From Cyanobacteriota bacterium (GTDB lineage: Bacteria; Cyanobacteriota; Cyanobacteriia; Thermostichales; Thermostichaceae), in assembly GCA_033764955.1 (NCBI GenBank), contig JANRIL010000006.1, positions 1 to 64,000 of the forward strand: DNA of 64,000 nt. The letters run 5' to 3'. Below, piece after piece: positions 430-4,866 of the stretch. The notes beneath the pieces were generated by a model that saw nothing but the letters and a program-made list of their open reading frames with translations, was not told the DNA's origin and ran no database searches. The position numbers were made by a program, and so were the translations under genes. Every line of letters begins with the position of its first letter. Within the stretch, counting starts at the first letter, position 1.

Positions 430-963
430 ATGCCTGTGAACAAAGTTGCTGTATTTGGTAATGCTGGAGGCGGAAAGTCTACACTCAGCAAACGTTTAGC
501 AGAAATGACTGATTTGCCTATGATCGCTTTAGACCTTATGAAGTATAAACCTGGCGGTGGAGAAGTACCCTATGAAGAATATAAAGCAGCTCATGATCAA
601 CTCCTCCAGCAGGACCAATGGATCATTGATGGATATGGATCTTTGGATACAGTATGGGAACGACTAGAGGTTGCGGACACCTTAATCTACCTAGATTTGC
701 CACTTCTCCGGCATTATTGGTGGGTAACGAAGCGATTTTTGAAAGGCTTTTTGGTTCCACCAGAAAATTGGCCTGAGAATAGTCCACTCCTGAAGGGCAC
801 ACTGAACAGCTACTATACTGTTTGGCTGTGCCATAAGAAACTTACTCCAAAATATCGGGAGTATGTGCATAAAGCCAAGGAAAGCAAGCGAGTGTATCAT
901 CTTCAGTCGCTTAAACAGGTGAAAAAGTTTTGCCAAGCTATTGAACTAGAATTCAAAAAATGA
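430..963 (+). CDS. Adenylate-kinase-like P-loop protein (FlaR / topology modulation protein family), cassette 1
   Basis: N-terminal GNAGGGKST P-loop, LD, WIIDGY, ADTLIYLDLP motifs typical of the family. Confidence 0.8.
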   Translation: MPVNKVAVFGNAGGGKSTLSKRLAEMTDLPMIALDLMKYKPGGGEVPYEEYKAAHDQLLQQDQWIIDGYGSLDTVWERLEVADTLIYLDLPLLRHYWWVTKRFLKGFLVPPENWPENSPLLKGTLNSYYTVWLCHKKLTPKYREYVHKAKESKRVYHLQSLKQVKKFCQAIELEFKK

Positions 964-1067
964 AGGTTATTTGTGGTGACCCAAAATTTCAAACAGCGAT
1001 CTGCCATTCCAAATTTACCAAAGAGGTTGTCTATCAGATGAGATTAAGGGACAGTGGTGTGCTCTCC

Positions 1068-1154
1068 AGCTAACAACCCCAATGCACACCGACCGCCGAG
1101 AGTTGATCGGTTATAGTTCGAGGTTATCTGCGCCGAGTGATTGGGGCGTTAGAC
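1068..1154 (+). repeat. attC site 2 (87 bp)
   Basis: AGCTAAC ... GTTAGAC; L boxes CCCCAATgCAC / GTGATTGGGG with an extrahelical base. Confidence 0.92.
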
Positions 1155-1183
1155 CGATACCCCAAACCTTCAGCATATGTGAG

Positions 1184-2218
1184 CTACTTTAATTCTGGTT
1201 CCAGAGTTAGTTGAGAGTTGGGCAATAATAGTTCAGTACGACCAGCAATCTTTTGGGCTAGATCCTTGAAATCCCAGTACACTAGCTTTACAGCAGCAAT
1301 GTGAGCACCTATAGCTCCATCAGCCGGTTTAAGCTGGAAAATGGGTTTATGAGACTCTTGAGCCATTGGCATCAAACTTTGATAGTGCTTAAGTAACGCT
1401 AAACGATTTGGATCGGTTGATGGCGTTAAGGTGGTTTCGTTTGGTTCTTGAAGAACCTCAGCACCGTAGATGTGTGGGATTCGTTCAATCCATCTTTGAA
1501 ATGCTTTTACAGGACGGTCAAATCGAACACCGTGTTGGAGAATAACATAACCAACAGGTTGCATTTTCCCTTTTGGTAAAGCGAGATCTGAGACTGGGTT
1601 TTTGGGGATACGCTCCTGCCATTCCTCTCTCCAGCGTCTTAGGGTTGGACCAAGGTTCTTGAGTCCCTGTAATGAGAAGAGATCTGGTGAGAGAGGAACT
1701 ACAACGTAGTCTGAGGCAATCAGAGCCGCTCGGTTAATTGCTCCTAAGTTGGGTCCTAAATCAACCAAAACAACGTCAGCACTATTAATGGATGCTGCTT
1801 GACTCAATATTCGCCAAAAAGCCGAGATAACTCTGAATGCTCGCTCTTTGCGATCAAGGCAATCAGACCATTGGGAGGACAATTCATCTTCAAACCCAGA
1901 CAGTTGTAAATCACCAATTAAAAGACTTAATCCATCTTCTACTTTTTCTAAATTTGGAGTCGCAATATCACCAATGCCACTTAATAAGGGTTTGACGCAT
2001 CGAAAGACAGTATTAAAGCTATCAGCATTGCTCCCTTCCCAAACCTCTTCCAATCGATCTTCATCTAGGAAAGCCGCTGTTAGATTAGCTTGAGGATCTA
2101 AATCTGCTGCTATTACTTTTAACCCCAAATCAAAGTACATCCAAGCCAAATGATAGACAAGGGATGTTTTTCCAACTCCTCCCTTGTTATTGAAGAAAGC
2201 AATAATTGGTGCGGTCAT
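1184..2218 (-). CDS. ParA/MinD-family ATPase (cassette 2, inverted)
   Basis: Deviant Walker A NNKGGVGKTS, DLDPQANLT, VLVDLGPNLG, PDLFSLQG. Confidence 0.88.
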   Translation of the reverse strand: MTAPIIAFFNNKGGVGKTSLVYHLAWMYFDLGLKVIAADLDPQANLTAAFLDEDRLEEVWEGSNADSFNTVFRCVKPLLSGIGDIATPNLEKVEDGLSLLIGDLQLSGFEDELSSQWSDCLDRKERAFRVISAFWRILSQAASINSADVVLVDLGPNLGAINRAALIASDYVVVPLSPDLFSLQGLKNLGPTLRRWREEWQERIPKNPVSDLALPKGKMQPVGYVILQHGVRFDRPVKAFQRWIERIPHIYGAEVLQEPNETTLTPSTDPNRLALLKHYQSLMPMAQESHKPIFQLKPADGAIGAHIAAVKLVYWDFKDLAQKIAGRTELLLPNSQLTLEPELK

Positions 2219-3405
2219 GAGTGCTTCCTAATAACAACTGACATATATGAATCCTCAATGGCAAATTCTGCGGGAGGATTCCCATTTTTCTTCAATTCTT
2301 TTTGAGCGGTTGGAATTCCGATACCAAAGCGCTGAACATATCCCAGGTTTTTCATCGCTTCCGCCAAATGAGGATTTCGATAATCGGTAACACCCTGACC
2401 AAAATTTTGACGATTTACTTGTCCAAACAGTCCACCTGGACTTTGAATCTCAATTCGATCACTAAACCAATAAACCCGCACCGGAGCATTAGTTTCTTCA
2501 TAGGAACGGTGCATAACAGCATTTCGTACAAGCTGCTGTAACGCTACGATGGGATAGTCAGGCTGCTTTATTTCGAGAGGTTGCGCTGTAATATCAGAAG
2601 CTGTCGAAATATTGGCTTGTAGAACTTCATCTATATAGCGTAGTAAATCGATAAGAGAACCACTAATTTCTTTTTGATCTCGAATGGGATCGGTTAATTC
2701 AGTTCCGTCAAAGCGGACAAATTGAATATAAAATCCTGGAATAAACTGCCTAGGTTCTTTCCCAGCTACTAGAATACCTAAGCTAGTTGGACGCGAATCC
2801 GGTTCTGGAGTCGCAAATCTTAGTGAGATTAGCTTCTGTGTTAAAGATCGCTGATTTTCATCTAACACTTCTGGTGCTAATGCTGATGTCAAGTATTCGC
2901 GTTGAAAAATCTCTAAATTTAAATCATCAATAGAAGCGGAAATAAAAGGGCGCAAATCAAAAGGTAAGTCTCTTGCGCGTCTTTTTTCATTAAGGCGACG
3001 TTCTTCTTCAGGTGTTGCTGTTGCGCGTCTGGGTCCAACTCGAATATATGTCCGTCCATCGAATCTAACTGGAGGAGCATCTGATGGTTCCACAATAATA
3101 ACAGCTAATTCGCAATTACCTAAAACACGCTTATTAACCTGTAGCACTGGGAACGGCAAAATCTTTCCTTCAGAGCGTATACTGGAAAGGCTTAGAAGAA
3201 GCTCGTCTGTAATAGGCAGGGCAGCGCAGGTTCCATCATCGTTAACTCCCACAAAAAGAACTCCAGGCTTTTTGTGATTTGGCAGATCGTTGGCGAAAGC
3301 ACAAATTGCCTGTCTAATTTTTTTCCCGTCTGAGATTGACGCTTTACGCTCAACTCTATCAGATTCAAGATCACCTAAAAGTGCCTTCAGCTCTTGATCA
3401 TCCAT
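2215..3405 (-). CDS. Schlafen/AlbA_2 domain + HATPase_c_4 (RecG-C-like) protein (cassette 2, inverted)
   Basis: ESDRVERK, ICAFAN, GVLFVGVNDDG (AlbA_2); NAVMHRSY, IEIQSPGG, RNPHLA, GIGI (HATPase_c_4); ATGA overlap with the ParA gene. Confidence 0.85.
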   Translation of the reverse strand: MDDQELKALLGDLESDRVERKASISDGKKIRQAICAFANDLPNHKKPGVLFVGVNDDGTCAALPITDELLLSLSSIRSEGKILPFPVLQVNKRVLGNCELAVIIVEPSDAPPVRFDGRTYIRVGPRRATATPEEERRLNEKRRARDLPFDLRPFISASIDDLNLEIFQREYLTSALAPEVLDENQRSLTQKLISLRFATPEPDSRPTSLGILVAGKEPRQFIPGFYIQFVRFDGTELTDPIRDQKEISGSLIDLLRYIDEVLQANISTASDITAQPLEIKQPDYPIVALQQLVRNAVMHRSYEETNAPVRVYWFSDRIEIQSPGGLFGQVNRQNFGQGVTDYRNPHLAEAMKNLGYVQRFGIGIPTAQKELKKNGNPPAEFAIEDSYMSVVIRKHS

Positions 3406-3468
3406 GTATTAGTCTCTAAAGTCCTCCTTACTAATCATAATCATTAAGGCTAGAATTGCGATAAATCG

Positions 3469-3555
3469 GTCTAACAACCGCGCTGCACCGGAACGCCGCA
3501 AGATGTTGGTTGAGTTGCAAAGATTATCTGCGTCCGGCGAGCACGACCGTTATGC
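3469..3555 (+). repeat. attC site 3 (87 bp)
   Basis: GTCTAAC ... GTTATGC; GCTgCACCGGA / TCCGGCGAGC arms; shared AGATTATCTGC motif. Confidence 0.9.
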
Positions 3556-3571
3556 CGACCGGAGATCACTA

Positions 3572-3622
3572 ATGAAGGCAATTCGACTTGCTAATTTGTT
3601 GGGTGCCTTTATGTTTGGGTAG
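3572..3622 (+). pseudogene. Start of a truncated further cassette ORF (MKAIRLANLLGAFMFG*)
   Basis: GGAG RBS and ATG directly after the attC3 core; no matching GCATAAC inverse core seen downstream. Confidence 0.4.
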
Positions 3623-3927
3623 TCCTATGCAAGTAATGGTAGCGCCCCTAGAGTAATGATACTATTGCCTTAGATTTTTTCTATTTCTTATTTGAGCCAT
3701 GTTTACCTGCCCAAACTGTCATTCGTCTGGCAGGCATGGGAAAGCTGATACAGATCAGTCTATATTTGGTTGAGAAGGCCTCATTTAGGAACTGGTTTAC
3801 TAAGTGCAGTAATCGTGCTATTTAATTGTCGAATGGGCTCTATCTCTGATGCGTAATCGGGAGCTACTCCTCTCCAAATCTGACCCCATACTTCTTGAAC
3901 AAATTTATCGACGCATGAGGATAGGAA

Positions 3928-4866
3928 GTGAGTCCGTTCGATTCCGATACCGATCTACAGGATAGTCAGGCTGCCACTCTAAGGCATGGGACACCTCGTC
4001 AACAAAGTAGCTGGGATCCCTATCTTTTTTTAGCACCCGCTTTAGTTCTGTTTCTTATCTCTTCCTTTTGGCCGATTCTTCAGGCTATTTGCTTAAGCTT
4101 TACCAACTACGATATTTTGAATGTCCCCAGATGGGTTGGGCTAAAGAACTATGTTCAATTAATTGGGGATCCGCTATTTTGGAAAGCACTGGTCAACACA
4201 CTTTTCTATTTGGCTTGCGTTGTGCCATTTTTGGTGATTCTGCCATTGGGATTGGCTATTTTGGTGAATCAATCCTTGCCTGGAATACGCTGGTTTAGAG
4301 TGATTTATTATTTGCCCGTGATTTTTTCTGTGGTGATTGCAGGACTTGCCTGGAAGTGGATTTACGCCGAAAATGGCCTCTTAAATTATGTCCTATCAAG
4401 TTTATTATTTCACCCTATTCAAATTAACTGGTTAACCGATCCGCGATTTGCTTTGCCTGCCCTCGCCACCGTCACCATTTGGAAAGGATTGGGATATTAT
4501 ATGGTGATCTATTTATCAGGACTGCAAGGGATCCCTCAGCATCTCTACGAAGCTGCTGCTATGGATGGCGCTAACCCCTGGCAACAACATACGAAAATCA
4601 CCCTTCCTCTGATGGCTTCTTACATGATTTTGGTGATGATTTTGTCAGCCATTGCCGCCATGAAGGTGTTTGAAGAAGTCTATGTTATGACGAGAGGGGG
4701 GCCTGCCAACAGTACCCTTACGCTGGTCTATTACCTCTACGAACAAGGTATCAGCCGCCTCAACATGGGCTATGCTGCCGCTATGGGAGCGGTGCTATTT
4801 GCAATAACTCTCTGTTTATCACTGATAGGGGTAAAATTGCTCAATAGCCGAGGGATCAATGGTTAG
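3928..4866 (+). CDS. Carbohydrate ABC transporter permease (MalF/LacF-like)
   Basis: YLFLAPAL, multiple TM helices, EAA loop LYEAAAMDGA, VMTRGGP. Confidence 0.9.
   Translation: MSPFDSDTDLQDSQAATLRHGTPRQQSSWDPYLFLAPALVLFLISSFWPILQAICLSFTNYDILNVPRWVGLKNYVQLIGDPLFWKALVNTLFYLACVVPFLVILPLGLAILVNQSLPGIRWFRVIYYLPVIFSVVIAGLAWKWIYAENGLLNYVLSSLLFHPIQINWLTDPRFALPALATVTIWKGLGYYMVIYLSGLQGIPQHLYEAAAMDGANPWQQHTKITLPLMASYMILVMILSAIAAMKVFEEVYVMTRGGPANSTLTLVYYLYEQGISRLNMGYAAAMGAVLFAITLCLSLIGVKLLNSRGING

Follow-up and report, generated by a model that had tools for sequence, protein, structure and literature searches.

The first 64 kb of contig JANRIL010000006.1 (C7, 64,000 nucleotides from base 1, hereafter the window) of the Cyanobacteriota bacterium assembly GCA_033764955.1 carries a minus-strand gene pair, A and B, that alone fills one integron gene cassette. 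Gene A codes for a protein with a Schlafen domain and a GHKL ATP-binding domain, and gene B for a ParA-like ATPase. By analogy with known systems, the cassette probably encodes a two-gene "ParA-effector" conflict system, namely an ATP-latched Schlafen tRNase gated by a ParA-type protein and acting in abortive infection or addiction. The initial annotation of this DNA had proposed an RNase effector regulated by a repurposed ParA in a candidate anti-phage or addiction cassette. Comparative evidence supports this proposal: the linkage of the two genes, an invariant nuclease motif, partner swaps by B relatives, the mobility of the cassette, and a published prediction of the class. The coordinates of the features are compiled in Table 1. 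The assembly amounts to 3.8 Mb in 48 contigs and is 89% complete.

The cassette is delimited by two attC sites, both on the plus strand, which agrees with the initial annotation of one cassette for both genes lying antisense to the array. The pair is oriented against the attC polarity and against both neighbouring cassette open reading frames (ORFs). It occupies the last cassette of the array, followed by chromosomal genes of which the first codes for an ABC permease (position 3928). The attC sites were found with a covariance model, R1, built from 13 attC-like sites of this genome and of two related loci (91 positions, 19 base pairs); it was used in place of an earlier fold-based search that gave 20 candidates and missed two of the window sites. 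R1 has three matches within the window, all on the plus strand and all belonging to its own training set. The site that closes the cassette is an imperfect palindrome with R'' and R' cores (GTCTAAC...GTTATGC, 3469-3555). The boundaries are also visible by comparison of the window with 31 related loci (blastn): homology of 82-89% identity stops at window positions 1115-1149 and 3549-3558, on both sides in L003, L004, L005, L013, L014 and L016 and on one side in L033 and L027 (L numbers designate individual loci). These breakpoints are the G/TT cores of the two flanking attC sites. An R1 attC is found directly upstream of A in L004, L005, L014, L016 and L027, all outside the training set, and in L003 and L013, which belong to it; none was detected in the remaining 24 of the 31 loci, R1 being genome-specific and divergent attC sites being possible there. 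The cassette is a discrete mobile unit bounded at G/TT sites. The assembly codes for two full IntI integrases, both scoring above the TIGR02249 cut-off. A plus-strand attC array adjoins the minus-strand integrase gene of contig C9 (19-960) while a mirror-image array adjoins that of contig C38 (63588-64529). The polarity of the window attC sites is that of the C9 array; the window array therefore reads on the plus strand, and an integrase gene belonging to it, if there is one, would be found upstream of the first base of the contig. No Rfam family matches the window at gathering thresholds.

The stop codon of A and the start codon of B overlap in an ATGA, as noted initially, and 23 of 24 intact related pairs share this four-nucleotide overlap, the exception being L025 (one nucleotide). 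The two genes are translationally coupled. The start of A is fixed because an in-frame TAA lies just ahead of its ATG. Of the two upstream boxes described in the initial annotation, AAGGAGG and TATGAT are both present, but the second, when considered as a promoter element, was not picked up by a consensus promoter scan, which called three promoter-like sites in 900-3950 against 5.6 expected from shuffled sequences. The Shine-Dalgarno-like AAGGAGG stands 17 nucleotides from the ATG of A, a long spacing. The stretch GATTATGAT is kept in 13 of 18 aligned upstream regions, copies with differing flanks included. Since the operon is antisense behind its own conserved leader, its expression would be independent of the integron promoter wherever the cassette lands. 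A separate promoter-like site (TAGAAA-16-TATCAT, 3656-3683, minus strand) is positioned outside the cassette and could read through attC into the operon. One soil metatranscriptome run contained 6% of the sampled words and gave four short contigs (80-99% identity) covering parts of B (1608-1973), of A (3205-3364) and of attC. They were rejected as evidence of expression: they come from a relative, could result from DNA carry-over and hold no start or strand information.

Protein A combines the Pfam families SLFN_AlbA_2 (PF04326; residues 14-127, E 2.5e-13, 51.0 bits for a gathering cut-off of 25.3) and HATPase_c_4 (PF13749; residues 307-392, E 9.5e-19, 67.6 bits for a cut-off of 26), and NCBIfam has no family for it. 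This is the architecture named "Schlatpase" supradomain in a preprint of May 2026, which counts it in 60,692 of 103,533 prokaryotic Schlafen proteins (bioRxiv 10.64898/2026.05.29.728809). The ExxxxExK and GVxDD motifs reported initially are found as E14-SDRV-E19-R-K21 and GVNDDG (53-58); the glutamates, first numbered E15 and E20, are E14 and E19. Both motifs are generic to the domain family and not peculiar to A. Twenty-four A orthologues share without exception E14, D16, E19, R20, K21, C35-A36-F37, D56 and G58, the segment CAFAN at 35-39 forming a SAFAN-like box. In a broader set of 74 relatives, E14 is kept in 73 and E19 in 72. With D56 as third acidic residue, A thus has the set of motifs described for the active Schlafen nucleases RzAgo and pSlfn, namely E(x)4(D/E)xK, SAFAN and a third acid. 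All 74 relatives also share the GHKL residues N295, H299, G324, R343, N344 and G363. The structure of A was modelled from these 74 diverse sequences with a mean predicted local distance difference test (pLDDT) score of 92.2, superseding a first model from the 24 close orthologues (pLDDT 61) in which the Schlafen domain alone was reliable. According to VIA-align, the whole chain resembles 3LMM (Corynebacterium diphtheriae DIP2311; Z 23.6), its amino terminus domain 2KYY (Z 10.2) and the SAMD9 tRNase (Z 9.1), and its carboxyl terminus domain the CA domain of histidine kinase HK853 (Z 9.8), SpoIIAB (Z 9.5) and PDK/BCKDK (Z ~9). SLFN11, SLFN12 and SLFN14 are also among the Foldseek matches of the amino terminus domain.

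Protein B is recognized by ParA-type models of Pfam (AAA_31/CbiA, E 1.7e-27), while NCBIfam partition models remain far under their cut-offs (62.7 bits vs 180). Among solved structures, B is closest to the uncharacterised 3PG5 (E 3.1e-29, residues 6-308), which we take to be a C. diphtheriae protein encoded near DIP2311 (3LMM, the closest solved structure to A); of these two structures, the identity of 3LMM is the one that was confirmed. The description of B as a ParB-less ParA stands, no ParB_N domain being found in the cassette, the window or the 89%-complete assembly. Residues K12, V15, D39, D41, Q43 and D153 are invariant in 24 orthologues, as are N10 within FFNNKGGVGKTS and the complete D39-L-D41-P-Q43 segment; K17 is kept in 22 of them (Q in L019, T in L024). 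The least conserved parts are residues 61-80, 241-280 and 321-344, with a mean column identity of 0.80 for residues 1-320 vs 0.46 for residues 321-344. The tail also varies in length and is ~80 residues longer in L009. A computational preprint on ParA-effector systems (Li, Burroughs and Aravind, bioRxiv, 22 October 2026, 10.64898/2026.10.19.760177) gives as PriB1-type marks an Asn that is the N-terminal-most residue in Walker A and a sensor-1 DxD followed two residues on by Gln. Its ConB1 group is marked by a conserved Val in Walker A, with Lys and not Arg, and has a rapidly evolving carboxyl-terminal extension. B displays N10, V15, D39-D41-Q43 and a variable tail, and its membership of ConB1 is predicted from these marks together with the operon partner.

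The initial annotation had made its proposal depend on the two genes staying together, and they do. Searches with A as query collected 31 related loci (59-94% identity), labelled mostly as cyanobacteria and otherwise as Cyclobacteriaceae, Bryobacterales, Nitrospirae and Gammaproteobacteria, the copies under these four other labels being 59-89% identical. A B relative lies directly downstream of A in 30 of the 31 loci, the last one being truncated where its contig ends. From the phylum of the window, 401 evenly sampled genomes were queried with A and with B; A is present in 19 of them (16 of 156 genera) and B, at 49% identity or above, in 20. Apart from the genome of the window, 18 of these cyanobacteria contain A; 17 have B next to it and the 18th retains no more than an 85-residue remnant of A. 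A second-phylum sample gave B-like matches in 28 of 401 genomes (30 loci), with an A-like sequence directly upstream of B (at least 50% identity) in all 24 informative loci. A second pair, 42% and 46% identical, is found in one genome (L092). The linkage of A and B is strict down to ~45% identity across phyla and the distribution of the pair is patchy and horizontally transferred. More distant copies are inserted among housekeeping genes at different places. Across 28 related loci no third conserved gene accompanies the pair; genes of defence or mobility occur at most 2.6 kb away in nine of them (restriction-modification, RAMP, BrnA, CHAT, IS21/IntI-like and others). In L029 (4415-10339), a metagenome-assembled genome labelled Gammaproteobacteria, the pair is flanked by a type I methylase gene and by the gene of a 700-residue Schlafen-GHKL-TPR protein. 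The identities of A and B to their window counterparts do not always go together (r = 0.82), as in L014 (81% and 94%), L016 (78% and 91%) and L030 (84% and 74%), a hint that lineages of A and B have recombined.

More distant relatives of B, 30-40% identical, have no A-like neighbour, and several are found with known defence effectors instead. They overlap in operon with SIR2_2 genes in L051 (3992-5847), L084, L085 (1495-3353) and L086 (626-2508); L051 is a Vibrio ponticus plasmid that carries its own ParA-ParB besides the B relative. In L057 (2178-4372), the B relative is behind an Xre-type helix-turn-helix gene and ahead of a RelA_SpoT protein gene. Other distant B relatives are alone in defence-rich plasmid regions. 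PADLOC recognizes the SIR2 partners as ThsA/LmuA/Dsr-like and has no model for the associated ATPases beyond a weak PDC-M28B match, a model that B itself matches at E 7.5e-5. Note also a lone B-like gene, 39% identical, in L056 (3248-4988), divergent from an integron-integrase-like fragment and with a ParE-like toxin gene downstream.

This exchange of partners bears on whether the pair positions DNA, with B as a true partition or positioning ATPase and A as a DNA- or RNA-binding adaptor replacing ParB. B has the deviant Walker A fold and motifs of ParABS ATPases, all ParA catalytic motifs included, ParB_N is lacking from the assembly and AlbA_2 was long annotated as a DNA-binding domain, all of which would suit such a role. 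However, the partner of B here is of nuclease type and its nuclease residues are invariant, B relatives pair with NADase-type and RelA-type effectors, the plasmid bearing a B relative encodes a separate ParA-ParB, A is often lost where B stays and the gene order is opposite to that of par operons. A DNA-positioning pair is thus most improbable, and a partition function was rejected on these grounds.

The decay of the pair is asymmetric. It was followed in 59 loci (L003-L033, L054, L055, L058-L081, L087 and L088, with L029 and L064 being one place), of which 40 have A and B intact, 12 have A broken or remnant with B intact, five have both broken, none has A intact with B broken and two are cut by contig ends; related genomes in this count are not independent and it is biased, 28 of the 59 loci having been found with the B query, which cannot show a lost B. 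The A-query loci alone (n = 31) give four cases of A broken with B intact against none of the reverse, and the double-query survey of 401 genomes also gives four against none, one locus being common to the two sets. Lesions of A comprise a nonsense codon, frameshifts, internal deletions (L032, L075), insertions (L058, L074), an IS30-like element (L067) and remnants (L054, L055, L061). The pattern is suggestive of A being a dispensable or dangerous partner and B the one that is kept. A deletion in L033 (6001-7100) has left ~116 codons from the start of A fused to ~230 codons from the end of B.

The 12 to 0 ratio fits a toxin and antidote logic and speaks for pure addiction, where A would be a toxin and B its ATP-dependent antidote, stabilising the array or a chromosomal spot with no anti-phage role. 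The cassette is moreover inverted with its own leader, most copies of the pair are alone amid housekeeping genes, and toxin-antitoxin systems are the commonest "defence" class of integrons, where they stabilise sedentary integrons (bioRxiv 10.1101/2024.07.02.601686). B is, however, a 344-residue ATPase and no small labile antitoxin of the type II kind, it has variable surface patches, and its relatives swap effectors (SIR2, RelA/SpoT) in the manner of defence sensors. Addiction without defence is unlikely, the two being in any case compatible with each other.

The ParA-effector reading can be laid out as follows. A would be the effector, its Schlafen domain acting as a metal-dependent RNase and most likely as a tRNase. 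Binding of ATP to its GHKL domain would cause oligomerisation and gather the Schlafen domains into an active nuclease, in the way demonstrated for this two-domain module of the SLFN-Argonaute RzAgo. B would be a ParA-type ATP switch, held at a fixed ratio to A through translational coupling, that contacts A, senses or binds invading DNA and gates its partner. Cells would grow as long as B keeps the system restrained; once infection or module loss disturbs B, A would cleave RNA and arrest translation, resulting in abortive infection. Addiction to the cassette might be a side effect of this mechanism.

RzAgo provides a mechanistic precedent. Its Schlafen domain cleaves tRNA, ATP binding to its GHKL domain leads to tetramerisation, and the E314A mutant binds ATP and still oligomerises without hydrolysis (10.64898/2026.05.29.728809). 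A shares with it the pair PF04326 and PF13749, the nuclease motifs and the GHKL Asn, and the alignment of A to the PADLOC pAgo model spans ~430 residues from the start of that model. It differs by having no Argonaute sensor and by its separate ParA-like partner gene, a partner of which the available text of that preprint makes no mention. The Mg/gamma-phosphate pair E314/N318 of the RzAgo GHKL domain is not reproduced in A, where N295 is invariant and the Glu is replaced by Q291. By analogy with E314A, Q291 predicts ATP binding with poor hydrolysis. The general-base position (window ~2533-2535, minus strand) is occupied solely by E (38) or Q (36) in the 74 A relatives, a toggle that suggests repeated switching between hydrolysing and binding-only GHKL forms.

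Several points, besides the sampling bias of the decay count, weigh against the ParA-effector reading. Gln takes the place of the catalytic GHKL Glu in 23 of 24 orthologues and the ATP cycle of A may thus differ from that of RzAgo. Within 2.6 kb of the pair, 19 of the 28 related loci show housekeeping genes and none for defence or mobility. No PADLOC model covers the A-B pair, which is matched at the domain level only, by pAgo and Aga models. The logic put forward in the October 2026 preprint is somewhat different, the ParA sequestering invader DNA first and the effector firing only upon failure. The prokaryotic Schlafen (pSlfn) genes of the histidine-kinase class, alone in Escherichia coli, were outside the two giving defence (Nat Microbiol 2026, PMC13056530), and the literature searched reports no experiment on any member of the ParA-effector class.

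A variant of the scheme, which we put forward as a tentative and rather doubtful possibility, has B as the brake, or antidote, of the Schlafen RNase and not solely as a sensor of DNA. Immunity and addiction would in that case be combined in the cassette, a self-stabilising unit shuttled between genera by integrons. In this clade, as the E/Q toggle at the catalytic base would indicate, the GHKL domain would be an ATP-binding-only latch, released or reset by the ATP cycle of the ParA. If correct, this would explain why Schlafen-histidine-kinase genes tested without their neighbours gave no defence.

The neighbourhoods without defence genes are also compatible with a regulated module for growth arrest or programmed cell death whose trigger is physiological, be it temperature, stress or the fate of cells in filamentous (multicellular) bacteria, and not an invader. 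The model is the temperature-restricting locus of Photorhabdus (TrlG/TrlF/TrlR), whose TrlG, encoded in a small operon, has the AlbA_2 and HATPase_c_4 architecture of A and stops growth at 36 C (bioRxiv 10.1101/2020.06.02.129163). TrlG likewise has a nucleotide-dependent operon partner, but this is a PHP-type protein (a "TrlF family AAA-like ATPase" in plasmid annotation) and not a ParA, and the identity of TrlG to A is ~26%. The A relatives found in a plasmid collection are merely 24-28% identical and all of TrlG type. Schlafen-associated ParA systems are, in addition, reported to be enriched in multicellular taxa (10.64898/2026.10.19.760177). The patchy horizontal spread of the pair, its carriage in an integron cassette and its frequent pseudogenisation agree better with accessory conflict genes than with a role in development, and a module of this kind appears improbable.

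The pair belongs to a class already predicted in print in October 2026; its discovery value is therefore limited and its novelty modest. Section 16 of that preprint (10.64898/2026.10.19.760177) places histidine-kinase-Schlafen proteins among the ParA partners. The systems it describes, like the loci analysed here, consist of a ParA and a variable effector in a two-gene unit, and the Schlafen-GHKL, sirtuin and RelA-type partners were found here independently. The word "integron" does not occur in its available text, which makes no mention of carriage in inverted cassettes or of the decay asymmetry. What is new here is the inverted integron-cassette carriage with exact mobile boundaries, the strict linkage across phyla, the decay of A over B and the GHKL E/Q toggle. 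The last two are genomic hints on which partner is dangerous and which protective.

Schlafen-GHKL proteins are the commonest bacterial Schlafens. One census of 5,930 pSlfn proteins attributes 34% and 19% to them, Slfn-HisKinase, the class of A, being the commonest with 34.0% (PMC13056530), and another counts the 60,692 proteins mentioned above. Stand-alone Schlafen-GHKL proteins have no demonstrated trigger or regulator. The pSlfn systems validated in PMC13056530 are single genes with fused sensors (Ig-like, DUF262), and the phage-activated tRNase was demonstrated there for a Schlafen class other than Slfn-HisKinase. The available text of this paper has no match for "ATPase" or "operon" and does not mention a ParA partner. 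A mobile two-gene unit of 2.4 kb is an easy construct for testing ParA-type gating of a Schlafen tRNase. Defence and toxin-antitoxin cassettes are established in the sedentary chromosomal integrons of Vibrio and of RefSeq genomes (10.1101/2024.07.02.601686), which resemble the present case in carrying compact attC-bounded conflict modules. The available text of that study has no match for "cyanobacteria" and the A-B pair was not seen there. The link between integrons and conflict systems is here extended to cyanobacteria.

Table 1. Features of the A-B cassette and of the adjoining array (window positions).
Feature	Position	Strand	Description
Integron gene cassette	1149..3549	+	2,401 bp; from TT of GTTAGAC (1148-1154) to G of GTTATGC (3549-3555)
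A	2215..3405	-	396 residues; Schlafen/AlbA_2 RNase-type domain, linker, C-terminal GHKL (Bergerat) ATP-binding domain
B	1184..2218	-	344 residues; ParA-like deviant-Walker-A ATPase
ATGA stop/start overlap of A and B	2215..2218	-	translational coupling; 23/24 intact pairs
Leader	3406..3466	-	TATGAT 3439-3434, AAGGAGG 3429-3423, in-frame TAA 6-4 nucleotides before ATG; function predicted
attC of the pair's cassette, terminal attC of the array	3467..3557	+	R1, 96.8 bits, E 5e-22
attC of the preceding cassette, R' site = left boundary of the pair's cassette	1066..1156	+	R1, 66.1 bits
attC of the first, truncated cassette at the contig start	233..322	+	R1, 62.8 bits

The neighbouring cassette codes at 430-963 (plus strand) for a P-loop kinase-like protein of 177 residues that has no Pfam match; its similarity to the NCBIfam "DNA topology modulation protein" (E 7e-24) is yet under the cut-off. 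About 70 attC-like sites are detected by R1 in the whole genome at E 0.01 or better, many of them far from any integrase gene, a large integron load for a genome of 3.8 Mb. In L003 (4541-5679; record label Vasconcelosia minhoensis), the cassette adjoins a weak attC-like site and the gene of an IntI-like tyrosine recombinase (Phage_int_SAM_4). It may hold there the first position of an integron, with an IS21 element on its other side.

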